Shown here: one piece after another, positions 1-19,285 of the stretch
Numbering within the stretch: the first letter of the stretch is position 1
Layout of the letters: each line of letters opens with the position of its first letter
Virus record (IMG/VR): IMGVR_UViG_2639762844_000001
Location: 1 to 19,285 of that record
Length of the DNA stretch: 19,285 bases
Source: a virus
Taxonomy: Duplodnaviria; Heunggongvirae; Uroviricota; Caudoviricetes
Direction: 5' to 3' (one strand)
Made by a program: the position numbers and the translations under genes
Notes under the pieces: generated by a model
What the model was told of the DNA's origin: nothing
Seen by the model: only the letters and a program-made list of their open reading frames with translations
Database searches by the model: none

Positions 1-1248
1 ATGGCACTGAATATTCCATTCAGAAATGCGTACTATCGTTTTGCATCCAGTTACTCATTTCTCTTTTTTATTTCCTGGTCGCTGTGGTGGTCGTTATACG
101 CTATTTGGCTGAAAGGACATCTAGGGTTGACAGGGACGGAATTAGGTACACTTTATTCGGTCAACCAGTTTACCAGCATTCTATTTATGATGTTCTACGG
201 CATCGTTCAGGATAAACTCGGTCTGAAGAAACCGCTCATCTGGTGTATGAGTTTCATCCTGGTCTTGACCGGACCGTTTATGATTTACGTTTATGAACCG
301 TTACTGCAAAGCAATTTTTCTGTAGGTCTAATTCTGGGGGCGCTATTTTTTGGCTTGGGGTATCTGGCGGGATGCGGTTTGCTTGATAGCTTCACCGAAA
401 AAATGGCGCGAAATTTTCATTTCGAATATGGAACAGCGCGCGCCTGGGGATCTTTTGGCTATGCTATTGGCGCGTTCTTTGCCGGCATATTTTTTAGTAT
501 CAGTCCCCATATCAACTTCTGGTTGGTCTCGCTATTTGGCGCTGTATTTATGATGATCAACATGCGTTTTAAAGATAAGGATCACCAGTGCGTAGCGGCA
601 GATGCGGGAGGGGTAAAAAAAGAGGATTTTATCGCAGTTTTCAAGGATCGAAACTTCTGGGTTTTCGTCATATTTATTGTGGGGACGTGGTCTTTCTATA
701 ACATTTTTGATCAACAACTTTTTCCTGTCTTTTATGCAGGTTTATTCGAATCACACGATGTAGGAACGCGCCTGTATGGTTATCTCAACTCATTCCAGGT
801 GGTACTCGAAGCGCTGTGCATGGCGATTATTCCTTTCTTTGTGAATCGGGTAGGGCCAAAAAATGCATTACTTATCGGAGTTGTGATTATGGCGTTGCGT
901 ATCCTTTCCTGCGCGCTGTTCGTTAACCCCTGGATTATTTCATTAGTGAAGTTGTTACATGCCATTGAGGTTCCACTTTGTGTCATATCCGTCTTCAAAT
1001 ACAGCGTGGCAAACTTTGATAAGCGCCTGTCGTCGACGATCTTTCTGATTGGTTTTCAAATTGCCAGTTCGCTTGGGATTGTGCTGCTTTCAACGCCGAC
1101 TGGGATACTCTTTGACCACGCAGGCTACCAGACAGTTTTCTTCGCAATTTCGGGTATTGTCTGCCTGATGTTGCTATTTGGCATTTTCTTCTTGAGTAAA
1201 AAACGCGAGCAAATAGTTATGGAAACGCCTGTACCTTCAGCAATATAG
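1..1248 (+). CDS. cscB: Sucrose:H+ symporter, LacY-family oligosaccharide permease (415 aa)
   Basis: Full-length ORF with multi-helix hydrophobic profile; sequence recognised from memory as E. coli sucrose permease CscB (MALNIPFRNAYYRF...). Stop TAG at 1246-1248. In csc operons cscB is the last gene of cscKB, so the locus ends here. Confidence 0.9.
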   Translation: MALNIPFRNAYYRFASSYSFLFFISWSLWWSLYAIWLKGHLGLTGTELGTLYSVNQFTSILFMMFYGIVQDKLGLKKPLIWCMSFILVLTGPFMIYVYEPLLQSNFSVGLILGALFFGLGYLAGCGLLDSFTEKMARNFHFEYGTARAWGSFGYAIGAFFAGIFFSISPHINFWLVSLFGAVFMMINMRFKDKDHQCVAADAGGVKKEDFIAVFKDRNFWVFVIFIVGTWSFYNIFDQQLFPVFYAGLFESHDVGTRLYGYLNSFQVVLEALCMAIIPFFVNRVGPKNALLIGVVIMALRILSCALFVNPWIISLVKLLHAIEVPLCVISVFKYSVANFDKRLSSTIFLIGFQIASSLGIVLLSTPTGILFDHAGYQTVFFAISGIVCLMLLFGIFFLSKKREQIVMETPVPSAI

Positions 1249-1257
1249 ACGTAAACT

Positions 1258-1301
1258 TTTTCCGGTTGTTGTCGATAGCTCTATATCCCTCAACCGGAAA
1301 A
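1258..1301. repeat. Perfect 11-bp inverted repeat (TTTTCCGGTTG / CAACCGGAAAA) with 22-nt spacer, 10 nt after the cscB stop
   Basis: Read directly: arms 1258-1268 and 1291-1301 are exact reverse complements. Loop is too long for a canonical intrinsic terminator; could be a protein-binding palindrome or structured 3' end. Confidence 0.4.
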
Positions 1302-1689
1302 TAATAATAGTAAAATGCTTAGCCCTGCTAATAATCGCCTAATCCAAACGCCTCATTCATGTTCTGGTACAGTCGCTCAAATGTACTTCAGATGCGCGGT
1401 TCGCTGATTTCCAGGACATTGTCGTCATTCAGTGACCTGTCCCGTGTATCACGGTCCTGCGAATTCATCAAGGAATGCATTGCGGAGTGAAGTATCGAGT
1501 CACGCCATATTTCGCTATCAGGATTCTGTGTGATGGTTACATCGCCCGGCCCAGGGCTGTTTAGTCATCAGCGCTTTCTGACAGTGCTGAGATTTCAACC
1601 TGTTGCAGTAAAAATGAGTAGATATAAGGCAAGTGTGCTGCCAAACCCATCTTTTACGGGGTGAAGGTAGATTTCGTTTGAAGGGTATC

Positions 1690-1704
1690 TGGTGTCCCCT
1701 GCAG
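1690..1704 (-). other. Prophage att core: 15-bp copy of the argW 3' end (CTGCAGGGGACACCA on the minus strand)
   Basis: TGGTGTCCCCTGCAG at 1690-1704 is the reverse complement of the 3' terminus of tRNA-Arg(CCU) argW as I recall it; identity stops after 15 nt, as expected for a duplicated att core rather than a tRNA gene. Lies 73 bp from the torI stop. Confidence 0.6.
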
Positions 1705-1777
1705 ACATCTACTTGGCGCGGCAGGGGATTGATTGGAATGGTTTTTTTTAGATGTGAAAAATATTTTACCCGCTATT

Positions 1778-1978
1778 TTACCCATTGGCGCGGCTTAAGA
1801 GCTTATTTTTGAATTCACAATGGTCACGATATAACCATCTTGCTCGCCCGTGGATAACTTTGGCTTTTGGCAGGTCGCCGGACTTAATCCGGTCATAGAT
1901 GAAGGTCTTACCGAAGCCAGTATCAGCCATGATGAATTTCAAATCAACCAGTGAATCAGGTTGTAGTTCGTGTTGCAT
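1778..1978 (-). CDS. torI: AlpA/Xis-family recombination directionality factor (excisionase), 66 aa
   Basis: 66-aa ORF MQHELQPDSLVDLKFIMADTGFGKTFIYDRIKSGDLPKAKVIHGRARWLYRDH... recognised from memory as TorI, the KplE1 excisionase; AlpA-type winged-helix pattern; adjacent to the att core at the int-distal end as in K-12. Confidence 0.8.
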   Translation of the reverse strand: MQHELQPDSLVDLKFIMADTGFGKTFIYDRIKSGDLPKAKVIHGRARWLYRDHCEFKNKLLSRANG

Positions 1979-2102
1979 GAGTGCTATCTCCGAATATGGA
2001 ATCGAACCTGCAAATCAGGCAATAAAAAGCCGCATTGATGCAGCAATGGTAGGTCTGGATATCTTGAGAAATGAACAGGCCTCATCGAGTGTGAGACTGT
2101 GG

Positions 2103-2447
2103 TTAGTCCTTGCGTAGCTCGCTGATTCTTCTGTAAGTCTCTGGTGCTTTGTTTCCGTGTATCTTCATTTCAGACTTCAACAGAGCAACGAGAGAATCCC
2201 ATTCGTTGAGGATGCCTTTGAATGCCGGAACGCGCTTTGCAACCTTGTCGAATGAATCTCTGATTTCTGGAATCTGCTCAACAAGTGCAACGCATCGCCG
2301 GAAATCGGCTGCGTCATGTGGAGCACCGAAGCTATGACCATAGATATTCTTTTTCAGTCCACATGCGATTGAGGCAAGAGTTGCGCTACTGATGCCGACA
2401 TCGCCAGTCGATTGCCATTTCAAAACCTTCATAGCCAAATCTGACAT
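2103..2447 (-). CDS. Hypothetical prophage protein, 114 aa, function unknown
   Basis: Clean ORF co-oriented with torI and the lambda-like early genes, typical GC content; no family recognised from sequence (MSDLAMKVLKWQSTGDVGISSATLASIACGLKK...). Confidence 0.55.
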   Translation of the reverse strand: MSDLAMKVLKWQSTGDVGISSATLASIACGLKKNIYGHSFGAPHDAADFRRCVALVEQIPEIRDSFDKVAKRVPAFKGILNEWDSLVALLKSEMKIHGNKAPETYRRISELRKD

Positions 2448-2689
2448 TTCTTGTCTCCATAAAACAAAACTCGCCGTAGCGAGCTCAGATAAAAGAAATC
2501 CCCGTCAGTGCGAGGATGCTGTTCATTGCTGCTATACACTTTTTTGCTCTCAACGTAAGCGGTAGCCCATTCTGTTGGGTTGGTGCAGTTGCTTTTAGGA
2601 AATGCTATTTACCCCTTAAACGTCGGCTGAAAGAGCTAAAATCCATGCAAAAAATTTACGCAATTTTGTGTATTATTGTGCAGTAAGTA

Positions 2690-3292
2690 ATGAGCTATTT
2701 TCTGCGCAAAAAATGGATGGTAAATTTGTCCGGGGCAGGAAAAATTTTATGGGCGCTAAACATGAAAAAAGATTCGTATCCTTATTTGATTTGCATGACA
2801 GTTTCAGGGCTGATCTTTATTTTCCTTTTCTTCTGGTGGCGGGAAGATATCTACAGGGTCACGTTTCTTAATCAGAGTATATCCCACTATTACATTCTGT
2901 TTAGCATGGGAATAGCTTTTCTGTTATCTCTGTTTTGGGTTAAGAAGGGGATAGTAAAACAAAGCGGCTGGAAGAGTCTGTCAGCATACCTTAAGGTTTA
3001 TGCAGGGATGTGCATATTTTCTGGATTTTTTCTGATTATACCCCTTACAACACTAACTTATTTTTTGCCTGGAGAGACATCGTCTTATGTTGCACCGTAT
3101 CGGTATACTTCCGGTAGTTCAAAAAGTTGTTCTGGAGCTGAGGTGGATGACCCCGATCTACATGAGAATATTCGCATTTGCTATCCGTATGGCAATTATG
3201 AGTACGATAATATTATCTATGTTGAAAAGAAAATTAATACATTAGGTGCGGTAGTGACATATGCACAGACCGCGCGTGATGATACTGAATGA
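2690..3292 (+). CDS. AT-rich moron: predicted membrane protein (about 3 TM helices plus Cys/Tyr-rich C-terminal domain), function unknown
   Basis: Only plus-strand gene inside a minus-strand early operon; about 39 percent GC against about 50-55 percent for flanking genes; hydrophobic segments LICMTVSGLIFIFLFFWW, YYILFSMGIAFLLSLFWV, VYAGMCIFSGFFLIIPLTTLTYFL; hairpin terminator just downstream. Start uncertain (ATG 2690, alternative ATG 2762; neither has a strong SD). Confidence 0.6.
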   Translation: MSYFLRKKWMVNLSGAGKILWALNMKKDSYPYLICMTVSGLIFIFLFFWWREDIYRVTFLNQSISHYYILFSMGIAFLLSLFWVKKGIVKQSGWKSLSAYLKVYAGMCIFSGFFLIIPLTTLTYFLPGETSSYVAPYRYTSGSSKSCSGAEVDDPDLHENIRICYPYGNYEYDNIIYVEKKINTLGAVVTYAQTARDDTE

Positions 3293-3326
3293 GATAGTAT
3301 ATAGCGGGCAAGTTTTAGTTAATTTA

Positions 3327-3350
3327 TCGAGGTAATATAATTTACCTCGA
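3327..3350 (+). terminator. Hairpin (9-bp stem TCGAGGTAA / TTACCTCGA, 6-nt loop TATAAT) downstream of the moron gene
   Basis: Read directly; followed by a T-rich stretch (CTCGTTTATT). Sits in the gap between the convergent moron and orf73 genes, so it may act in both directions. Confidence 0.45.
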
Positions 3351-3502
3351 CTCGTTTATTCTGGTATTAATATTTCGCTTTACGATCGATTTTTATCTGA
3401 TGATATCATGCGGTTTTCATATACTGACTTACTGTCTTTTCTCCGTTAGCGATTTTCTCATGCTCAGCGATGATTTTATCTTTGGCTTCTAGTTAATTTC
3501 GC

Positions 3503-3724
3503 TCACTTCGAACCTCTCTGTTTACTGATAAGTTCCAGATCCTCCTGGCAACTTGCACAAGTCCGACAACCCTGAACGGCCAGGCGTCTTCGTTCATCTA
3601 TCGGATCGCCACACTCACAACAATGAGTGGCAGATATAGCCTGGTGGTTCAGGCGGCGCATTTTTATTGCTGTGTTGCGCTGTAATTCTTCTATTTCTGA
3701 TGCTGAATCAATGATGTCTGCCAT
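3503..3724 (-). CDS. TraR/DksA-family C4 zinc-finger protein (lambda Orf73-like), 73 aa
   Basis: CxxC...17...CxxC pattern (CCECGDPIDERRRLAVQGCRTCASC) and length typical of phage TraR homologues that bind RNA polymerase. Confidence 0.8.
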   Translation of the reverse strand: MADIIDSASEIEELQRNTAIKMRRLNHQAISATHCCECGDPIDERRRLAVQGCRTCASCQEDLELISKQRGSK

Positions 3725-3822
3725 CTTTCATTAATCCCTGAACTGTTGGTTAATACGCTTGAGGGTGAATGCGAACAATAAAAAAGGAGCCTGTAGCTCC
3801 CTGATAATTTTGCTTTTCATGT

Positions 3823-4038
3823 TCATCGTTCCTTAAAGACGCCGTTTAACATGCCGATCGCCAGGCTTAAATGAGTTGGTGTGAATCCCATCAGCGTTAC
3901 CGTTTCGCGGTGCTTCTTCAGTACGCTACGGCAAATGTCATCGACGTTTTTATCCGGAAAATGCTGTCTGGCTTTTTTGATTTCAGAATTAGCCTGACGG
4001 GCAATGCTGCGAAGGGCGTTTTCTTGCTGAGGTGTCAT
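3823..4038 (-). CDS. Small lambda-like early-left protein, function unknown (ORF extends to 4104; start placed at internal Met MTPQQ...)
   Basis: ORF in the same operon orientation, in the position of the small lambda b-region ORFs; exact lambda counterpart not recognised. Start codon choice is uncertain. Confidence 0.45.
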   Translation of the reverse strand: MTPQQENALRSIARQANSEIKKARQHFPDKNVDDICRSVLKKHRETVTLMGFTPTHLSLAIGMLNGVFKER

Positions 4039-4114
4039 TGAACAAGCCCCATGTCGGCAAGCATAAGCACACAGAATATGAAGCCCGCTGCCAGAAAAAT
4101 GCATTCAGTGGTTG

Positions 4115-4306
4115 TCATACCTGGTCTCTCTCATCTGCTTCTGCTTTCGCCACCATCATTTCCAGCTTTTGTGAAAGGGATGTGGCTAACGTATGAAATT
4201 CTTCGTCTGTTTCTACTGGTATTGGCACAAACCTGACTCCAATTTGAGCAAGGCTATGTGCCATCTCAATACTCGTTCTTAACTCAACAGGAGATGCTTT
4301 GTGCAT
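4115..4306 (-). CDS. Lambda orf63-like small protein (63 aa)
   Basis: Length and position, overlapping orf60a upstream of exo, match lambda orf63; collinearity with lambda holds at a constant offset from here through ea10. Confidence 0.6.
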   Translation of the reverse strand: MHKASPVELRTSIEMAHSLAQIGVRFVPIPVETDEEFHTLATSLSQKLEMMVAKAEADERDQV

Positions 4307-4461
4307 ACCGCCTCCCGTTTATTATTTATCTTCTCAGCCAGCCGCTGTGCTTTCAGGGGATTTCTGATAACAGAAAGGCCGGGAAATACCCAGCCTCGCT
4401 TTGTAACGGAGTAGACGAAAGTGATCGCGCCTACCCGGATATTATCGTGAGGATGCGTCAT
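4279..4461 (-). CDS. Lambda orf60a-like small protein (60 aa from MTHPHD...)
   Basis: Internal Met gives exactly 60 aa, ending 4 nt inside exo; matches the lambda arrangement. Confidence 0.55.
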
Positions 4462-5138
4462 CGCCATTGCTCCCCAAATACAAAACCAATTTCAGCCAGT
4501 GCCTCGTCCATTTTTTCGATGAACTCCGGCACCATCTCGTCAAAACTCGCCATGTACTTTTCATTCCGCTCAATCACGACATAATGCAGGCCTTCACGCT
4601 TCATGCGCGGGTCATAGTTGGCAAAGTACCAGGCATCTTTTCGCGTCACCCACATGCTGTACTGCACCTGGGCCATGTAAGCCGATTTTATTGCCTCGAA
4701 ACCACCGAGCCGGAATTTCATGAAATCCCGGGAGGTAAACGGGCATTTCAGTTCAAGGCCGTTGCCGTCACTGCATAAACCATCGGGAGAGCAGGCGGTG
4801 CGCATACTTTCGTCGCGATAGATGATCGGGGATTCAGTAATATTCACGCCGGAAGTGAATTCAAACAGGGTTCTGGCGTCGTTCTCGTACTGTTTTCCCC
4901 AGGCCAGCGCCTTAGCATTAACTTCCGGAGCCACACCGGTGCAAACCTCAGCCAGCAGGGTGTGGAAGTAGGATATTTTCATGTCAGGCCACTTCTTTCC
5001 TGAGCGGGGCTTTGCTATCACGTTGTGAACTTCTGAAGCGGTGATGACGCCGAGCCGTAATTTGTGCCATGCATCATCCCCCTGTTCGACAGCTCTCACG
5101 TCGATCCCGGTACGCTGCAGGATAATGTCCGGTATCAT
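4458..5138 (-). CDS. exo: Lambda exonuclease (Red alpha), 226 aa
   Basis: Near-identical to lambda Exo as recalled ([50 protein letters not shown]...); 4-nt overlap with bet as in lambda. Confidence 0.95.
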
Positions 5139-5920
5139 GCTGCCACCTTCTGCTCAGTGGCTTTCTGTTTCAGGAATCCAAGAGCTTTCACTGCTTCGGC
5201 CTGTGTCAGTTCTGACGATGCGCGAATGTCGCGGCGAAATATCTGGGAACAGAGCGGCAATAAGTCGTCATCCCATGTTTTATCCAGGGCGATCAGCAGA
5301 GTGTTAATCTCCTGCATGGTTTCATCGTTAACCGGAGTGATGTCGCGTTCTGGCTGACGTTCTGCAGTGTATGCAGTATTTTCGACAATGCGCTCGGCTT
5401 CATCCTTGTCATAGATACCAGCAAATCCGAAGGCCAGACGGGCACACTGAATCATGGCTTTATGCCGTAACATCCGTTTGGGATGCGACTGCCACGGCCC
5501 CGTGATTTCTCTGCCTTCGCGGGTTTTGAATGGTTCGCGGCGGCATTCATCCATCCATTCGGTAACGCAGATCGGATGATTACGGTCCTTGCGGTAAATC
5601 CGGCATGTACAGGATTCATTGTCCTGTTCAAAGTCCATGCCATCAAACTGCTGGTTTTCATTGATGATGCGGGACCAGCCATCAACGCCCACCACCGGAA
5701 CAATGCCGTTCTGCTTATCAGGGAAGGCGTAAATTTCTTTCGTCCACGGATTAAGGCCGTACTGGTTGGCGACGATCAGCAATGCGATGAACTGCGCATC
5801 GCTGGCATCACCTTTAAATGCCGTCTGGCGAAGAGTGGTGATCAGTTCCTGTGGGTCGACAGAATCCATGCCGACACGTTCAGCCAGCTTCCCTGCCAGC
5901 GTTGCGAGTGCTGTACTCAT
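5135..5920 (-). CDS. bet: Lambda Bet single-strand annealing protein (Red beta), 261 aa
   Basis: Near-identical to lambda Bet as recalled ([66 protein letters not shown]...). Confidence 0.95.
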
Positions 5921-5925
5921 CCGTT

Positions 5926-6342
5926 TTATACCTCTGAATCAATATCAACCTGGTGGTGAGCAATGGTTTCAACCATGTACCGGATGTGTTCTGCCATGCG
6001 CTCCTGAAACTCAACATCGTCATCAAACGCACGGGTAATGGCTTTTTTGCTGGCCCCGTGGCGTTGTAAATGATCGATGCAGAGTGATTCAAACAGGTGC
6101 TGGGGCAGACCTTTTTCCATGTCGTCTGCCAGTTCTGCCTCTTTCTCTTCACGGGCGATCTGCTGGTAGTGACGCGTCCAGCTCTGAGCCTCAAGACGAT
6201 CCTGAATGTAATAAGCGTTCATGGCTGAACTCCTGAAATAGCTGTGAAAATATCGCCCGCGAAATGCCGGGCTGATTAGGAAAACAGGAAAGGGGGTTAG
6301 TGAATGCTTTTGCTTGATCTCAGTTTCAGTATTAATATCCAT
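5926..6342 (-). CDS. gam: Lambda Gam, RecBCD inhibitor, 138 aa
   Basis: Near-identical to lambda Gam as recalled ([36 protein letters not shown]...). Confidence 0.95.
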
Positions 6343-6440
6343 TTTTTATAAGCGTCGACGGCCTCACGAAACATCTTTTCATCGCCAATAAAAGTGGCGA
6401 TAGTGAATTTAGTCTGGATAGCCATAAGTGTTTGATCCAT
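6297..6440 (-). CDS. kil: Lambda Kil host-killing protein (FtsZ inhibitor), 47 aa
   Basis: [47 protein letters not shown]; overlaps gam by 46 nt and cIII by 32 nt, as in lambda. Confidence 0.85.
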
Positions 6441-6573
6441 TCTTTGGGACTCCTGGCTGATTAAGTATGTCGATAAGGCGTTTCCATCCGTCACGTAATT
6501 TACGGGTGATTCGTTCAAGTAAAGATTCGGAAGGGCAGCCAGCAACAGGCCACCCTGCAATGGCATATTGCAT
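6409..6573 (-). CDS. cIII: Lambda CIII, FtsH (HflB) protease inhibitor, 54 aa
   Basis: [54 protein letters not shown] recognised as lambda CIII. Confidence 0.9.
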   Translation of the reverse strand: MQYAIAGWPVAGCPSESLLERITRKLRDGWKRLIDILNQPGVPKNGSNTYGYPD

Positions 6574-6645
6574 GGTGTGCTCCTTATTTATACATAACGA
6601 AAAACGCCTCGAGTGAAGCGTTATTGGTATGCGGTAAAACCGCAC

Positions 6646-7014
6646 TCAGGCGGCCTTGATAGTCATATCATCTGAATCAAATATTCCTGATGTATCGATA
6701 TCGGTAATTCTTATTCCTTCACTACCATCCATTGGAGGCCATCCTTCCTGACCATTTCCATCATCCCAGTCGAACTCACAAACAACACCATATGCATTTA
6801 AGTCTTTCGAAATTGCTATAAGCAGAGCATGTTGCGCCAGCATGATTAATACAGCATTTAATACAGAGCCGTGTTTATTGAGTCGGTATTCAGAGTCTGA
6901 CCAGAAATTATTAATCTGGTGAAGTTTTTCCTCTGTCATTACGTCATGGTCGATTTCAATTTCTATTGATGCTTTCCAGTCGTAATCAATGATGTATTTT
7001 TTGATGTTTGACAT
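6646..7014 (-). CDS. ea10: Lambda Ea10-like early protein (122 aa)
   Basis: Length and sequence match lambda ea10 as recalled; position between cIII and the ral-side region. Confidence 0.8.
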   Translation of the reverse strand: MSNIKKYIIDYDWKASIEIEIDHDVMTEEKLHQINNFWSDSEYRLNKHGSVLNAVLIMLAQHALLIAISKDLNAYGVVCEFDWDDGNGQEGWPPMDGSEGIRITDIDTSGIFDSDDMTIKAA

Positions 7015-7034
7015 CTGTTCATATCCTCATAGAT

Positions 7035-7060
7035 AAAAAATCGCCCTCACACTGGAGGGC
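7035..7060 (-). terminator. Intrinsic terminator on the leftward transcript (stem GCCCTC/GAGGGC, loop ACACTG, then U6), upstream of ea10; lambda tL2-like
   Basis: Read directly: 7043-7060 hairpin, A6 on the plus strand at 7035-7040 gives a U-tract on the minus-strand RNA. In lambda the equivalent terminators are overridden by N, which is absent here. Confidence 0.5.
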
Positions 7061-7226
7061 AAAGAAGATTTCCAATAATCAGAACAAGTCGGCTCCTGTT
7101 TAGTTACGAGCGACATTGCTCCGTGTATTCACTCGTTGGAATGAATACACAGTGTGAAGTGGTTTACTGAATTTGGCCACCTGAACAGAGGTGATATGCT
7201 CACCTCAGAACAACACAGGTGCCATA

Positions 7227-8374
<1,148 letters not shown>

Positions 8375-8404
8375 CTCGGTGGCCAGTTTTTGTTGACCAC
8401 TTCA

Positions 8405-8536
8405 ATCACTGCCGAGCTGGCGAACGGTCAGGTCTATGTACTGTCGTCTGCCTGGCTGCACGGCGAAGCGAACCATAATGCCGAAGAAGGCACGGTTGAT
8501 CTTGAGTTCCACGGTGAAGAAGGGGATTACCAGTAA
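8405..8536 (+). pseudogene. 3' fragment (last 43 codons) of a phage tail-tube-like gene truncated by IS911
   Basis: Open frame runs from the IS911 boundary (ITAELANGQVYVLSSAWLHGEANHNAEEGTVDLEFHGEEGDYQ*) with stop overlapping the next start (TAATG); no start codon, so it is a truncated remnant. Confidence 0.5.
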
Positions 8537-8805
8537 TGAAAGAGCTTGAGTTAAAGAAACCGATTATCGCTCATGGTGAGACACTCTCCGTACTGGAGTT
8601 TGATGAACCCACCGGGAAGGATGTCCGCGAGCTGGGGTATCCCTACCAGATGAATCAGGATGAGTCCGTCAGACTTCTGGCGCATGTGGTGTCGAAATAC
8701 ATTGTGCGGCTGGCGAAAGTGCCGCAAAGCTCTGTCGACCAGATGTCTCCGGCAGACCTGAATGCAGCGGCGTGGCTTGTGGCTGGTTTTTTCCTCCAGG
8801 CCTGA
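8536..8805 (+). CDS. Phage tail assembly chaperone (lambda G / Mu gp41 analogue), 89 aa
   Basis: Small acidic ORF directly upstream of the tape measure gene with a -1 overlapping extension frame; classic G/GT arrangement. Confidence 0.75.
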   Translation: MKELELKKPIIAHGETLSVLEFDEPTGKDVRELGYPYQMNQDESVRLLAHVVSKYIVRLAKVPQSSVDQMSPADLNAAAWLVAGFFLQA

Positions 8806-8954: not shown

Positions 8955-10782
8955 ATTTGAGCTTAAGGCGTTGATCACCGGTGTCGACAGGCTTTCTCCC
9001 GCGCTGTCGAAAATGCAAAAGAAAATCCGGGGATTTAAACGCCAGGCGGAAGAAGCGTCACAGGGTGGGCTGGCGCTTGGTGGCGGATTGGCAGCGGGGC
9101 TGACGCTTTCCCTGAAATCTTATGCCGATCAGGAAAACGCCGCTACCGGGCTGAAAGTCGCCATGATGGATGCGAACGGCGAGGTTGGAAAGAGCTTTCA
9201 GGACATCAATAAACTGGCTATTGGCCTGGGTAACCAGCTACCCGGTACAACGGCTGATTTCCAGAACATGATGCAGATGCTGGTGCGTCAGGGGATCCCG
9301 GCAGAAAACATTCTGGGTGGTGTGGGTAAAGCGACAGCTTATCTTGCGGTACAACTGAAAAAAACACCGGAAGCGGCTGCCGAGTTTGCAGCAAAGATGC
9401 AGGATGCTACCGGAACGGCCTCAGAAGACATGATGGGGCTGTTCGACACAATTCAGAAGGCGTTTTATCTGGGCGTTGACGACACCAACATGCTGTCATT
9501 CTTCACTAAAACCAGCTCTGTTCTGAAGATGGTGAATAAGGACGGTCTTCAGGCTGCACAGAGTCTTGCCCCCATCAGTGTCATGATGGATCAGATGGGG
9601 ATGAACGGGGAGTCGGCAGGTAATGCCCTGCGAAAAGTTATCCAGTCCGGATTAAGCGTTAAGAAAATTAGGGACGTCAATAAAGTCATGGCCCGCCAGA
9701 AACTCGGGATACAACTCGATTTTACTGATGGCAAAGGGAGTTTTGGCGGTCTTGATAACATGTTCAGGCAACTGGCAAAGTTGCGAAAACTGACCGACGT
9801 TAAGCGAACAGGCGTACTTAAGGCAATATTTGGTGATGATGCCGAAACCCTTCAGGTGGTCAATGCCCTGATCGATAAAGGAAAGGATGGCTACGATCAG
9901 ATCCAGCAGAAGATGAATAAACAGGCCAGCCTGAATAAACGTGTTCAGGCTCAGCTTGGTACGCTGTCCAACCTGTGGGAGGCAATGACGGGGACCGCAA
10001 CTAACGGTCTTGCAGCTATTGGCGGCGCATTTTCTGGTGACGCTAAAAATATCACGCAATGGCTGGGGGAGTTAGGGGAAAAATTCACAAAGTTTGCGGA
10101 TGAAAATCCCCGGGTTATTCGCGGCGTCGTCGGGCTTGCTGCCGGTCTTGCGATTCTGAAGCTGGGATTGATGGGCGTGGGCAGTGCCATCAGTATTGTC
10201 AGCAGGATCATGTCGATGACGCCGATTGGCATGATTGCGACGGCGATAGCCCTGGCTGCGGGATTAATTATCACTAACTGGGATGTTGTCGGACCTTATT
10301 TTAAGAAACTCTGGGAAACCATTGGTCCTTATTTTGAGGCTGGCTGGGAACTCCTTAAGAAAGTTTTTGCCTGGTCGCCGCTGGGGATGGTGATCAATAA
10401 CTGGGGGCCGGTTGTTAAGTGGTTTCAGGATATGTGGGACAAGCTGAAGCCGATTATTGAATGGTTTACCGACAGTTCCGGTGACACGGTCGATACCATT
10501 AACTCGGCGCAGTGGGGCGCGGGTGCTTATGATGCTTATGGGACGGGAATACCGGCACGGGGATACACTCCTTATCCGGCGGTAGATCTGGCTCAGTCAA
10601 ACAACGCCTCCGATGCCACAGGCCCGAATCCCTTCATGATTAACAAAGCTTCTGCGCCAAAAGTTGATGGTGAGATCAAGGTCTCTTTTGTGAATTCGCC
10701 TCCGGGTATGCGGGTTATGGAAACGCGAACCAGCGGTTTTGATGTCAGCCATGATGTTGGCTATACGCGCTTTGGCAGGTAA
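8947..10782 (+). CDS. Tail tape measure protein, 611 aa
   Basis: Long Ala/Gly/Gln-rich largely helical protein with C-terminal hydrophobic and Trp-rich segment, immediately after the chaperone frameshift pair. Confidence 0.9.
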   Translation: MAEFELKALITGVDRLSPALSKMQKKIRGFKRQAEEASQGGLALGGGLAAGLTLSLKSYADQENAATGLKVAMMDANGEVGKSFQDINKLAIGLGNQLPGTTADFQNMMQMLVRQGIPAENILGGVGKATAYLAVQLKKTPEAAAEFAAKMQDATGTASEDMMGLFDTIQKAFYLGVDDTNMLSFFTKTSSVLKMVNKDGLQAAQSLAPISVMMDQMGMNGESAGNALRKVIQSGLSVKKIRDVNKVMARQKLGIQLDFTDGKGSFGGLDNMFRQLAKLRKLTDVKRTGVLKAIFGDDAETLQVVNALIDKGKDGYDQIQQKMNKQASLNKRVQAQLGTLSNLWEAMTGTATNGLAAIGGAFSGDAKNITQWLGELGEKFTKFADENPRVIRGVVGLAAGLAILKLGLMGVGSAISIVSRIMSMTPIGMIATAIALAAGLIITNWDVVGPYFKKLWETIGPYFEAGWELLKKVFAWSPLGMVINNWGPVVKWFQDMWDKLKPIIEWFTDSSGDTVDTINSAQWGAGAYDAYGTGIPARGYTPYPAVDLAQSNNASDATGPNPFMINKASAPKVDGEIKVSFVNSPPGMRVMETRTSGFDVSHDVGYTRFGR

Positions 10783-10806
10783 TGAAAAATTAATCTGTTA
10801 ATGAGT

Positions 10807-10829
10807 CCCACTTCGGTGGGCTTTTTTAT
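10807..10829 (+). terminator. Candidate intrinsic terminator (CCCAC-TTCG-GTGGG plus T6) between the tape measure and DNA-circulation genes
   Basis: Read directly: 5-bp GC stem with TTCG tetraloop followed by CTTTTTTAT, 25 nt after the tape measure stop and just before the SD/ATG at 10843. Confidence 0.4.
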
Positions 10830-10842
10830 ATCCGGAGTTTAT

Positions 10843-12171
10843 ATGACGTGGAAAGACAGGCTTCAGGATGCGTCATTTCGAGGTGTGCCGTTTAAGGTTG
10901 AAGAAGAAAGTGCGGGAACCGGCCGTCGTGTGGAAACACACGAATATCCGAACCGCGACAAACCCTATACCGAAGATCTGGGAAAAGTCACTTTCCGCCC
11001 GTCCATCACAGCTTATGTGGTGGGAGATGACTGCTTTGACCAGCGCGATCGCCTGATTGAAGCGCTGAATAAACCCGGTCCCGGCACGCTTGTCCACCCG
11101 ACATATGGTGAGCTGAAAGTCTGTGTTGACGGGGAAGTTCGGGTCAGCACATCGAAAAGTGAAGGGCGTATTGTCCGCTTTGACCTGAAGTTTGTCGAAG
11201 CGGGAGAACTCTCTTACCCCACATCAGGTGCGGCGACGGCGCAGACGCTGATGTCATCCTGTTCTGCACTGGATGACTGCATCAGTGAAAGTTTCAGTGG
11301 TTTCAGTATCGATGGCGTGGCAGATTTTGTGCAGAACGACGTCGTCGGTAATGCCGGCACAATGCTTGGGTATGTTTCTGATGCGATGAAAGTGGTGGAT
11401 TCTGCCGTATCGGATGCCGCCAGGCTGTTGCAGGGGGATATCTCGGTACTTCTGCCGCCGCCATCGTCAGGCAAAAATTTCGTTGAACAGGTGCAGAAAA
11501 TGTGGCGTACCGGGAAACGCCTTTATGGTAACGCCAGCGACCTGGTCACCATGATCAAAACGCTTTCCGGTGTCAGCCTCGGCAGCGATCTGCAACCGCG
11601 CGGCGTCTGGAAAACGGACAGTAAAACCACCGCTACGGCGACGCAGCAGCGTAACGTGGTTGCCAGCATCCTTCGTACGACCGCAATCAGCGAAGCGGCG
11701 TATGCCGTCACCCGATTGCCTGCGCCAACAACTTCCGCGGTGATGCAGAATGCCGCAGTGGGGCAGGCAACAACACCCGCGCAGAGCACTGGCTGGCCTT
11801 CCGTCACGCATCCGGCACTGAACAATGCACCGGCGGTGAAAAGCACGGTTGACCTGCCGACGTGGGAAGAACTGACTGACATTCGCTACACACTGAATAC
11901 GGCAATTGATAAGGAGTTGTCCCGCACAACCAGTGATGCGCTGTTTCTGGCGCTGCGCCGGGTGAAAGCAGATCTGAATGCGGATATCAACACGCGCCTT
12001 GAACAGTCTGCACGGATCATTCAGCGCACGCCGGATGAGGTTTTACCCGCACTGGTGCTGGCGGCGACCTGGTTTGATAACGCGGCGCGTGACGCGGACA
12101 TTATCCGGCGTAATGCCATTACGCATCCCGGCTTTGTGCCGGTGATCCCTCTGAAGGTGCCAGTGCAATGA
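10843..12171 (+). CDS. Mu gp43-like DNA circulation protein (tail/baseplate), 442 aa
   Basis: N-terminal MTWKDRLQDASFRGVPFKVEEESAGTGRRVETHEYPNRD... typical of the Mu DNA-circulation N-domain; position after the tape measure gene; SD GGAG before the ATG at 10843 (the ORF track starts at an upstream ATG inside the terminator). Confidence 0.75.
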   Translation: MTWKDRLQDASFRGVPFKVEEESAGTGRRVETHEYPNRDKPYTEDLGKVTFRPSITAYVVGDDCFDQRDRLIEALNKPGPGTLVHPTYGELKVCVDGEVRVSTSKSEGRIVRFDLKFVEAGELSYPTSGAATAQTLMSSCSALDDCISESFSGFSIDGVADFVQNDVVGNAGTMLGYVSDAMKVVDSAVSDAARLLQGDISVLLPPPSSGKNFVEQVQKMWRTGKRLYGNASDLVTMIKTLSGVSLGSDLQPRGVWKTDSKTTATATQQRNVVASILRTTAISEAAYAVTRLPAPTTSAVMQNAAVGQATTPAQSTGWPSVTHPALNNAPAVKSTVDLPTWEELTDIRYTLNTAIDKELSRTTSDALFLALRRVKADLNADINTRLEQSARIIQRTPDEVLPALVLAATWFDNAARDADIIRRNAITHPGFVPVIPLKVPVQ

Positions 12172-17346: not shown

Positions 17347-17934
17347 TTATCTAAATGTTTTGATATACTTGAGATAATATCTGTGTCTGAAGTTGAACAA
17401 TACATCTCCCGGGTAAATATTACCATTGCTCTCAACGAGTCCTTTGTTTTCTTTCGAGGTGAAAGATATCGTTCTTTTTATTTTTAACTCATTAAATTTC
17501 ATTACATCCATGTAACTTCCATCTCTATCACACATTTTAAAAACAACTCTATCAAGGCCATGTGATGATATAAAAGATTGAAGTCTTTTTATTCTTCTAT
17601 TCCATTTATCCATGGCTTCTGCCCTTGAGTTATAATGCATAAAGTATATTTTTACTCCATCCACAAATGCAACGGGGAAATTATGCTCTGTATTAATGAA
17701 ATCGCTTTCAACAATGTCTCTTGATAAAAAATGCTCCAAATTAATACACATTTCAACAAAATCAGATGCTGTGATGTACAGGCCGATAAAGGGAGTATTA
17801 TATTCAAGTCCTATATTTTTATATAGTCTATAGCCCCAGCAGTTATTGGATACAATAGCGAAAGGACGGGTTATTAAAATTTTGTCCAGAAAGTCAAATA
17901 ATCCAGTTTTGTGCAATATCTTATCTACCAACAT
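17347..17934 (-). CDS. AT-rich integrase-proximal cargo gene, 195-aa soluble protein of unknown function; tentative resemblance to DUF1919 proteins of polysaccharide loci
   Basis: About 33 percent GC inside a roughly 50-55 percent GC prophage; SD AAGGA 7 nt before the ATG; co-oriented with intS 193 bp downstream of it, in the slot that holds gtrABS in K-12 KplE1. The motif SNNCWGY...GLEYNTPFIGLY matches my recollection of the DUF1919 hallmark; not verified. Confidence 0.65.
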   Translation of the reverse strand: MLVDKILHKTGLFDFLDKILITRPFAIVSNNCWGYRLYKNIGLEYNTPFIGLYITASDFVEMCINLEHFLSRDIVESDFINTEHNFPVAFVDGVKIYFMHYNSRAEAMDKWNRRIKRLQSFISSHGLDRVVFKMCDRDGSYMDVMKFNELKIKRTISFTSKENKGLVESNGNIYPGDVLFNFRHRYYLKYIKTFR

Positions 17935-18127: not shown

Positions 18128-19285
18128 TCACACCACCTTTTCATCGATCCAATCCGCCCACCATTGCATCATTTCTCTGCGCTTATCGAGATACTGAGCA
18201 TGGTTGTAAATCCCGCGCACAGATCCGCCGTTGGCATGTGCCAGTTGCATTTCAATGGCGTCTGCAGGCCATTCGTGCTCGTTCATAATCGTGCTGAATT
18301 CATGCCTGAATCCGTGACCGCTTTCCAGACCCTCATAGCCGATTTGTTTGATCACAAGTAGCACCGCGTTCTCGCAGATTGGCTTTTTCTTATCGTTGCG
18401 CCCGGCAAAAACAAACTCTGATACTGGTTTGGTGATAGAGCTTAGCGTAGTGAGAAGTTCAACTACCTGGTCTGACATAGGAACCACATGAATTTTGCGA
18501 CCCTTCATCACACTGGCGTCGATGGTGATAATCCTGTTTTCAAAATCGACGTTCTTCCATAGCATGGAACGAAGCTCTTTCGTTCTTAGGGCTGTGTAGC
18601 GTAAAACTTTTGTCGCAATGAGCGATACGATACTTCCTGAAAATGTTGCAAGTGCTTTGTTGAATGCCGGGATCTGGTCTGCAGGTAAAAACGGGAAGTT
18701 CTTCTTGCGGTATCCTTTCATGGCGTCTGCAAGGTCAGGTGCCGGGTTATATTTAGCCCTTCCGGTGACAATAGCGTAACGGAAAACCTCGCCGCATCTT
18801 CTGCGGGCTTTGTTGGCTCGCTCCATTGCACCGCGATCTTCAAATCTGCGGATTACTTCCAGCAGTTGCATCGGCTCAATATCCTGAATTTCAAGGCTGC
18901 CGATGATGGGTAAAATGTCGTCATCAAACATTTTTGCAAGTTCAGTCGCATACCCTACTGACCATACTTGCTTCTTGTGATCGTACCATTCCTTGTAAAT
19001 CGCACTAAAGGAATTGTTGTTAGACGAAGCCTTTTTCGCCTTTACCGGATCGATGCCAACCGAGATATCTTTCCTCGCAGTCCATGCTTTACCCCTTGCC
19101 TCCTGCAAAGTCATAAGCGGATATTTTCCGACGGTCAGGATTTTCTCCTTACCGCCAATCTTGTAGCGAAGCTGCCATACCTTTTTCCCGGATACAGGCA
19201 CATAAAGGTACAGACCATTACCATCGAGAAGGCGGTATGGTTTTTCTTTCGGCTTTGCTGCTTCAATCTGCTTAACGGTGAGCAT
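18128..19285 (-). CDS. intS: P4-type tyrosine integrase of the argW prophage (IntS-like), 385 aa
   Basis: Near-identical to K-12 IntS as recalled (MLTVKQIEAAKPKEKPYRLLDGNGLYLYVPVSGKKVWQLRYKI...); catalytic-domain residues (R...HxxR...Y) present; the start codon is the last base of the window, so promoter, att site and argW are outside. Confidence 0.95.
   Translation of the reverse strand: MLTVKQIEAAKPKEKPYRLLDGNGLYLYVPVSGKKVWQLRYKIGGKEKILTVGKYPLMTLQEARGKAWTARKDISVGIDPVKAKKASSNNNSFSAIYKEWYDHKKQVWSVGYATELAKMFDDDILPIIGSLEIQDIEPMQLLEVIRRFEDRGAMERANKARRRCGEVFRYAIVTGRAKYNPAPDLADAMKGYRKKNFPFLPADQIPAFNKALATFSGSIVSLIATKVLRYTALRTKELRSMLWKNVDFENRIITIDASVMKGRKIHVVPMSDQVVELLTTLSSITKPVSEFVFAGRNDKKKPICENAVLLVIKQIGYEGLESGHGFRHEFSTIMNEHEWPADAIEMQLAHANGGSVRGIYNHAQYLDKRREMMQWWADWIDEKVV

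Follow-up and report, generated by a model that had tools for sequence, protein, structure and literature searches.

A lambda pL-operon remnant with intact Red and kil genes, cut off from its control region at an IS911-like element, is most likely silent in a defective argW prophage

When a prophage retains the lambda recombination genes together with kil, and an insertion sequence stands where their promoter should be, are these genes a latent module awaiting a new promoter or the leftover of a dismantled operon? The question is raised by a viral record of 19,285 nucleotides (IMGVR_UViG_2639762844_000001), referred to here in its entire length as the window. Judged from its sequence, the element is a defective prophage located at the tRNA-Arg gene argW and bounded by intS and torI at its two ends. 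The genes at issue, exo through ea10, occupy positions 4458-7014 on the minus strand and are accompanied by one RNA element:

4458-5138, minus strand: exo (lambda exonuclease), 226 aa, intact, 6 substitutions relative to lambda
5135-5920, minus strand: bet (Red-beta annealase), 261 aa, intact, 1 substitution relative to lambda
5926-6342, minus strand: gam (RecBCD inhibitor), 138 aa, intact, 3 substitutions relative to lambda
6297-6440, minus strand: kil (FtsZ-ring inhibitor peptide), 47 aa, identical to lambda
6409-6573, minus strand: cIII (FtsH inhibitor), 54 aa, identical to lambda
6528-6586, minus strand: cIII mRNA thermoregulator (Rfam RF01804), 88.5 bits (gathering threshold 50)
6646-7014, minus strand: ea10 (DUF2528), 122 aa, intact, 2 substitutions relative to lambda

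The first-pass annotation had described this block as full length and collinear with lambda, overlaps included, and the results from tblastn with the lambda proteins and from a codon-by-codon comparison agree with it. All six genes are full length, gap-free and 97-100% identical to the lambda proteins, with normal start and stop codons, and they overlap as in lambda (exo/bet by 4 bp, gam/kil by 46 bp, and kil/cIII by 32 bp). Every protein of the block has the Pfam family expected of it. Exo is a YqaJ-type 5'-3' exonuclease (PF09588, E = 2.9e-29; 226/226 aa aligned, 97.3% identity to lambda), Bet is an annealase of the Red-beta/RecT type (PF03837; 261/261 aa, 99.6% identity), and Gam (PF06064, E = 3.3e-64; 138/138 aa, 97.8% identity) is present in the 138-aa long form, which contains the 98-aa short form. 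Kil and CIII (PF06301 and PF02061, respectively) are both 100% identical to their lambda counterparts, and Kil has been characterized as an inhibitor of the FtsZ ring (PMC3961180). By gene content the predicted lambda Red module (Exo/Bet/Gam) is complete. Hidden inactivating mutations were considered and rejected, as the alignment revealed none in any of the six block genes, and Orf73 and the cIII RNA element proved intact too.

Leftward of exo, the arm continues to the end of the prophage remnant:

3967-4461, minus strand: homologues of orf61, orf63 and orf60a (small ORFs of the exo-xis region), 93-97% identity by tblastn
3503-3724, minus strand: Orf73 homologue with a TraR/DksA-type zinc finger, differing from the lambda protein at 1 aa
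1778-1978, minus strand: torI (excisionase / TorR inhibitor), from the RefSeq annotation of the same sequence and a PHROG excisionase match
1690-1704, unstranded: att core of 15 bp (CTGCAGGGGACACCA, reverse complement), a copy of the 3' end of tRNA-Arg argW

The final gene of the leftward operon is torI, and the att core forms the boundary of the remnant on that side; it was defined as the longest word common to the argW-intS and torI-cscB intervals of E. coli JNE170426 and mapped to window position 1690. In genomes sharing the window sequence argW adjoins intS, argW itself lying outside the window. The ORFs at 2103-2447 and 2690-3292 match only families of unknown function (Pfam, NCBIfam, PHROG). 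Expression of Orf73 from pL in lambda lowers the plating efficiency about 10^4-fold (PMC9239242).

On the other side of the block, the homology to lambda stops exactly at 7154, which corresponds to lambda 34044 in the interval from ea10 to ral, and the homology to phage 434 and others likewise ends at this position. No tblastn match to ral or N and no nut boxB within 2 mismatches could be found in the window, and an Rfam search returned the cIII element and no other RNA element. The loss of pL and N beyond the IS junction, claimed from the outset, is thus borne out by the homology endpoint as well as by both searches: the window contains neither ral and N nor nutL and pL, and therefore lacks what a functional pL operon comprises, namely pL/oL and N with nutL. 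Two features define the junctions:

7155-8404, plus strand: IS3-family element, IS911-like (ISEc52 in RefSeq), intact, 1250 bp
8405-8535, plus strand: last 131 bp of a tail-tube gene, the right-hand deletion endpoint

The element had been labeled IS911, a label refined here to an IS911-like member of the IS3 family annotated as ISEc52. It has inverted repeats (TGAAGTGG...), orfA and orfB in a -1 frame relation, an A6G slippery site located at 7478, an OrfA of 100 aa, and the domains HTH_Tnp_1 (orfA) and rve DDE (orfB), and it matches NF033516 with 302.8 bits. Its IRL abuts the ea10 side and its IRR the tail side. No target-site duplication surrounds it (flanks GTG vs ATC), and the lack of a 3-bp duplication points to a deletion or recombination junction rather than a simple insertion; strain 100181, by comparison, carries a simple insertion 12 bp away that is flanked by a duplicated AAT. 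The tube gene is complete in relatives, the 100% match to which starts at 8405, and is followed by genes for tail assembly, tape measure, and baseplate.

The results from genome comparisons reveal how far these deletions extend. In JNE170426 the ea10/IS junction is identical to the base, and the IRR abuts a truncated ybgA-family gene, beyond which lie genes for lysis, terminase, and head and a complete set of tail genes. As JNE170426 shares the left junction and retains these genes, the window represents a further deletion of about 14 kb on the IRR side, so that the two form nested deletions. Among finished E. coli genomes only JNE170426 has the left junction, the IS/tube junction is absent, and no record matches the whole window with at least 80% coverage. 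In Ec40743 and its relatives the same argW prophage also lacks the immunity region, and the IS lies to the right of ral in the opposite orientation. We propose that the block would derive from a lambdoid prophage having a Mu/SfV-like tail, and would represent the segment of its leftward early (pL) operon distal to the promoter, in which ISEc52 came to sit at lambda 34044/34045, between ea10 and ral. Deletions anchored at the IRR would then have removed ral, sieB, N, nutL, pL/oL, and the immunity and replication regions, and also the late regulator, the lysis and head genes, and the first part of the tail module. As to their order, we infer either successive adjacent deletions from one IS copy or recombination between two copies.

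Independent insertions of ISEc52/IS911-like elements, at least four in number and perhaps six, fall within about 0.6 kb in the ea10-ral-sieB segment, in different prophages and lineages. It might be argued that these elements target this region preferentially, as a recurrent and selected route to domestication rather than random decay. Were this so, the cut would separate N from the toxic and excision genes of the pL operon, to the advantage of the host, which would be rid of the threat from kil, gam, and orf73, and the prophage could no longer leave its site; we regard this as highly unlikely.

Could the block still be transcribed from a promoter at or beyond the junction? A consensus scan of the minus strand between 3300 and 8600 returned zero promoters. 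In a PWM scan, lambda pL ranked first with 13.1 bits, the best junction-proximal sites reached 5.3-5.4 bits, and sites of 8.0-8.6 bits were located inside the IS on the minus strand, at 8126 and 8396, about 1 kb from the junction. Neither scan, both being blind to weak, non-consensus, and alternative-sigma promoters, finds a credible sigma-70 promoter upstream of the block on the minus strand, including the left IS end and the junction, for which the first-pass annotation had proposed such a prediction. A hybrid promoter at the IS junction was also considered and rejected, since the end facing the block is the IRL and its best score is the 5.3-5.4 bits given above, against 13.1 bits for pL. 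Reading of the sequence places an outward -35 hexamer, TTGACC, in the IRR, where it faces the tail genes and not the block, with no correctly spaced -10 in the tail flank; this hexamer is presumably a part of an outward promoter, as in the IS911 pjunc. The earlier wording that the block is "presumably silent" gains support, of an indirect kind, from the lack of a credible promoter in either scan. Antisense transcription from the IS sites at 8126 and 8396, or read-through from the distant DUF1919 and intS genes, could still enter the block on the minus strand.

Any such transcript would meet sites resembling intrinsic terminators:

7031-7062, minus strand: hairpin (GCCCTC...GAGGGC) and T6 upstream of ea10, -14.1 kcal/mol, identical to lambda 33952-33931
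6595-6622, minus strand: hairpin and T-run just upstream of cIII, -13.8 kcal/mol, z = -3.9, identical to lambda 33512-33493
4366-4397, minus strand: hairpin and T-rich tail, -19.3 kcal/mol, z = -4.1, stem-loop identical to lambda 31287-31265

The terminator placed upstream of ea10 by the first-pass annotation (7035-7060) is recovered here as a predicted hairpin and T-run at 7062-7031, and all 32 nt of hairpin and tail are identical to lambda. The site corresponding to lambda 31287-31265 is one which we take to be tL3; a full-text literature search on the terminator names (tL2 cluster, tL3) gave nothing usable, so that these names are provisional, while the coordinates and the identity to the lambda sites come from the sequence comparison.

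These sites bear directly on the possibility of a latent module, in which a single promoter event upstream of ea10 would release both Red function and Kil toxicity in the manner of sbcA. No coding sequence is damaged, nor is the cIII thermoregulator, the IS immediately upstream looks active, and IS elements and rearrangements are able to create promoters. Moreover, Kil (PMC3961180), Gam, and Orf73 (PMC9239242) are toxic under pL expression. However, the delayed-early pL genes of lambda need antitermination by N (PMC2147009), and with N and nutL gone, transcription starting upstream of ea10 could not be antiterminated. The lambda-identical sites at 7062-7031 and 6622-6595 precede kil, gam, bet, and exo, with that at 4397-4366 following them, so that only a promoter arising downstream of about 6600 would be expected to activate them. 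With all three sites remaining, Red and kil would probably stay off if a new promoter appeared upstream of ea10 and nothing else changed. The orientation of the IS also argues against the latent module, since the IRL faces the block and the outward hexamer faces away from it, and strong read-through would reach torI as well and, with intS and both att cores, could allow the element to excise. A module activatable in one step is thus improbable. The claim that one promoter upstream would suffice for a recombineering-capable and toxic module, as in Rac, appears too simple in view of the lambda-identical terminators and the missing N and nutL, and the analogy with sbcA is weakened, as a promoter above ea10 would probably be insufficient for Red or kil.

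Is the intactness of the genes, then, a sign that they are maintained for the host? Over window positions 1-7154 there is a single base difference to JNE170426, and there are 2 to Ec40743. With 1-2 SNPs over 7154 bp, decapitation would be too recent for visible decay; the intactness of the genes, we infer, reflects recency and not selective upkeep, and neutrality is the reading adopted, although 1-2 SNPs are too few to decide on selection in either direction. A domesticated function, in which Exo, Bet, and Gam are made at a low level or under certain conditions and aid host recombination or repair, might be reached through relief from Rho or H-NS or through an antisense promoter inside the IS, where weak promoter-like sites do occur on the minus strand. 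The left arm is kept in 5/5 examined argW-locus genomes lacking the immunity region (the window, JNE170426, Ec40743, and two contigs that break in the IS), and domestication of defective prophage genes was reportedly proposed by Bobay et al. in 2014 and Wang et al. in 2010 (the latter cited in PMC3961180). Against this, the near-identity of the arm among these genomes means that they amount to roughly one lineage, and in Res13-Lact-PEA14-20 an IS1-bounded deletion at the same locus took exo through ea10, so that the Red block is not consistently retained there. One of the two left-arm SNPs, exo M55I, is nonsynonymous, and the terminators together with the toxic co-transcribed genes speak against useful constitutive expression. 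Domestication is accordingly very improbable. M55I itself was ruled out as a sign of decay, since the I55 allele is also found in prophages at other loci.

The same allele is compatible with exchange, as would be expected if the silent block mattered only as homologous DNA for superinfecting or co-resident lambdoid phages. Its nucleotide identity to lambda, 434, mEp332, and Stx phages is 97-98% over about 3.7-4.2 kb, and according to De Paepe et al. in 2014 (in the reference list of PMC11611040) Rad52-like recombinases are said to acquire DNA from defective prophages. This role as a gene reservoir is possible if doubtful; it would in any case be a consequence of any homologous prophage DNA and not a function specific to the block.

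The reading that we prefer, and hold to be very probably correct, is that of a promoter-distal relic of a pL operon, recently decapitated through IS deletions and most likely a silent passenger. The remainder from ea10 to torI would have no promoter of its own, would keep its internal terminators and, lacking nutL, could not recruit N; for these reasons it is predicted to be transcriptionally silent, and the Red block is most likely silent in the present strain. From the first-pass annotation the structure survives (an intact arm, the loss of pL and N, and a retained terminator), while easy activation does not. Prophages of E. coli commonly pass through such a stage as they decay, and the case has little significance beyond annotation; were expression shown, it would bear on prophage domestication, and nothing points that way. 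It does offer a clean example of IS-driven erosion by nested deletions from one fixed end, and illustrates that Red and kil genes may look intact and yet be dead weight in regulatory terms. The exo-ea10 block occurs in 1363/5426 complete E. coli genomes (at least 80% coverage), and the presence of exo/bet/gam in about a quarter of them is, where pL, N, and nutL are missing, no evidence of endogenous recombineering capacity.

Several known systems may be compared with this locus. Adjacent deletions by IS911/ISEc52 share with it the 1250-bp length, orfA/orfB, the A6G site, and nested deletions from one fixed IS end, with no unusual difference, as a missing 3-bp duplication is expected of a deletion junction. 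The lambda pL operon (30.4-34.0 kb) has the same genes, order, overlaps, hairpin-T sites, and cIII thermoregulator at about 98% nucleotide identity; in contrast to lambda, the window lacks ral, sieB, N, nutL, and pL/oL, ends in a KplE1-type torI and att instead of xis/int/attP, and is joined to an SfV/Mu-like rather than a lambda tail module. KplE1/CPS-53 of K-12 occupies the same site at argW, with the 3' end of argW duplicated as the att core and with intS/torI ends, and is likewise a non-inducible remnant. Its internal genes (yfd) differ, and it is not known to carry a lambda Red block, whereas the window has a lambda-like left arm and most of a contractile-tail module and adjoins the csc sucrose genes. 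The recET/kilR genes of Rac are also silent exonuclease, annealase, and cell-division-inhibitor genes in a defective prophage, although the prophage is a different one and the exonuclease and Kil belong to different protein families. In Rac the repressor and promoter region is still present and activation by sbcA was shown experimentally, whereas here the promoter has been physically deleted and terminators intervene. Finally, the engineered lambda prophages of the DY330/DY380 type and mini-lambda are likewise non-excising, non-replicating remnants with exo, bet, and gam. They retain cI857, pL, and N/nutL or have terminators deleted, which makes Red inducible (described in part in PMC3961180); these are the control parts that the natural remnant has lost.

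The window was queried with lambda proteins, and a codon-by-codon comparison of the matches followed. The six genes exo, bet, gam, kil, cIII and ea10 (4458-7014, minus strand) are complete and gap-free, with normal start and stop codons, and carry 6, 1, 3, 0, 0 and 2 amino acid substitutions relative to lambda, respectively. The exo/bet, gam/kil and kil/cIII overlaps follow the lambda arrangement, every protein of the block falls in its expected Pfam family, and the cIII thermoregulator RNA is found at 6528-6586 (Rfam). The first-pass annotation, which had described these genes as full length and collinear with lambda, overlaps included, is borne out by both the protein search and the codon comparison. 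At its left edge, 3503-3724 encodes a lambda Orf73 homologue with one residue different, after which come homologues of orf61, orf63 and orf60a.

Megablast against phage records gave matches of approximately 98% identity with lambda, 434, mEp332 and Stx phages, all of which stop at position 7154 (lambda 34044), between ea10 and ral. The lambda protein search gave no match to ral or N anywhere in the window, which is also devoid of any nut boxB. The native promoter and antiterminator region had been placed beyond the insertion sequence and considered lost, and this is what was found: the control region of the block is absent, while in every other respect tested the block is the lambda Red/gam/kil/cIII segment.

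The window extends from cscB to the start codon of intS and contains a defective prophage, closed by the DUF1919 gene and intS, with the following layout.

Features of the window
1-1248, plus strand, cscB (sucrose permease); the window opens at its start
1690-1704, 15-bp copy of the tRNA-Arg argW 3' end
1778-1978, minus strand, torI
After torI, up to 7154, leftward-transcribed lambda-like early arm
7155-8404, IS element, 1250 bp
Directly after the IS, 3'-terminal 131 bp of a tail-tube gene
Beyond this remnant, tail-assembly, tape-measure, Mu/SfV-like baseplate and fibre genes
17347-17934, minus strand, DUF1919 gene, between the tail-fibre region and intS
18128-19285, minus strand, full-length intS; the window closes at its start codon

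In complete genomes with the same sequence, argW lies just past intS, which identifies the element as an argW prophage of the KplE1/CPS-53 type. Excision of KplE1 has been reported in K-12; the att core, torI and full-length intS are all kept here, and the remnant may still be excisable. The DUF1919 gene occupies the slot where KplE1-type and Sf6-type prophages have cargo genes. Two ORFs, 2690-3292 (plus) and 2103-2447 (minus), assigned to phrog_1416 and phrog_1229, lie between torI and orf73. The 200-aa ORF in this interval, on the strand opposite to the early operon, has no Pfam or NCBIfam match and may be moron-like, with its own expression signals.

The IS encodes an HTH-domain OrfA of 100 aa and an OrfB with an rve domain, has an A6G slippery site at 7478, and is bounded by inverted repeats starting TGAAGTGG. 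Identical copies are labelled 'IS3-like element ISEc52 family' in RefSeq. The earlier name, IS911, was nearly right, in that OrfA and IRR of ISEc52 are very close to those of IS911. Since the transposase reads along the plus strand, IRL adjoins the ea10 side. No 3-bp duplication flanks the element (GTG left, ATC right), as would be expected of a deletion junction.

A consensus scan of the minus strand from 3300 to 8600 yielded no promoter-like site. In a position-weight scan, in which the control, lambda pL, ranked first at 13.1 bits, the best sites around the junction reached 5.3-5.4 bits, and values of 8.0-8.6 bits occurred solely deep within the IS, approximately 1 kb upstream; the latter are background-level, since they lie between the 99.9th and 99.99th percentiles of the window. 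The IRR (8385-8404) contains an outward-facing, -35-like TTGACC 6 bp from its tip, a hexamer with a role in the IS911 junction promoter, which points into the truncated tail module and away from the Red block. The flank 8405-8430 has no -10-like hexamer at 16-18 bp from it, and thus no obvious hybrid promoter for the tail genes.

The terminator assigned to 7035-7060 was confirmed. It consists of a GC-rich stem of 8 bp followed by T6 (7062-7031; -14.1 kcal/mol), and both hairpin and tail match lambda 33952-33931 exactly. Hairpin-plus-T sites at 7062-7031, 6622-6595 and 4397-4366 all match those of lambda, in which the delayed-early pL genes require N for read-through of such sites (PMC2147009). 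Both N and the cis-acting nutL are missing from the window, so that transcription from a new promoter upstream of ea10 would probably be halted without reaching kil, gam, bet and exo. The proposal that an upstream promoter would create an active module, as in Rac/sbcA, holds only for a promoter arising downstream of approximately 6600. Accidental expression would cost the host heavily. Kil prevents FtsZ-ring assembly (PMC3961180); Gam and Orf73 likewise inhibit growth, and pL-expressed Orf73 lowers plating approximately 10^4-fold (PMC9239242). Complete read-through would also hit torI and, as intS and the two att cores are still there, could lead to excision of the remnant, judging from KplE1.

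Among relatives, E. coli JNE170426 (NZ_AP027217.1, locus 29352-30594) has the same ea10/IRL junction to the base, yet its IRR adjoins a truncated ybgA-family gene, beyond which come lysis, terminase and head genes and a full set of tail genes; approximately 14 kb of this sequence is missing from the window. The window looks as if the same fixed IS end had given rise to a further deletion of this length, or as if recombination with a second IS copy had taken place, and the two would form a nested deletion pair anchored on the IRR end. The same argW prophage is found in Ec40743 and in several relatives that are 100% identical, likewise without immunity and replication regions; their IS lies right of ral in the opposite orientation, with a second copy ahead of the lysis genes. 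In Res13-Lact-PEA14-20 (NZ_CP062871.1, 3001-9400), an IS1-bounded deletion at the same argW/csc locus took all of exo through ea10, and cscB is split by an IS3-family insertion; decay at this locus therefore follows different routes. Over 1-7154 the window differs by one base from JNE170426 and by two from Ec40743, which makes these genomes one young lineage, and recency alone would suffice to explain the intactness of the block. The sole JNE170426 difference over 1-8404 is at position 4974 (exo ATG to ATA, M55I). Prophages at other loci, one site being near folD/fimbrial genes and another near proBA, encode the Ile55 protein as well, pointing to allele exchange or to recurrent mutation.

In different lambdoid prophages, independent insertions of ISEc52 are clustered within the ea10-ral-sieB segment, which is mildly unusual.

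ISEc52 insertions in the ea10-ral-sieB segment
Strain 100181, 9189-10438
JCM 5491, 9626-10875 and 4927-6176
Ec40743, 10842-12091
Two further hits of the search that matched the left junction to JNE170426

The insertion in strain 100181 is a simple one with an AAT duplication and lies just 12 bp away from the junction of the window; the prophage that carries it is otherwise complete and sits beside torS. A perfect 9-bp inverted repeat (GTGTATTCA...TGAATACAC) at 7115-7142, right beside the insertion point and also present in lambda (approximately 34005-34040), has two independent ISEc52 insertions within or next to it. The JCM 5491 arrangement was not seen in other ATCC 25922-type assemblies in the left-junction search. 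The clustering may reflect a hotspot or merely neutral tolerance; a selected hotspot is improbable.

The exo-ea10 block is very common: at least 80% of it is present in 1363 of 5426 complete E. coli genomes. Its anatomy holds nothing new, and an annotated RefSeq genome already contains the same left junction. The block lies within an argW remnant of the KplE1 type, equals the lambda segment apart from its missing control region, and was truncated by an ordinary IS3-family element.
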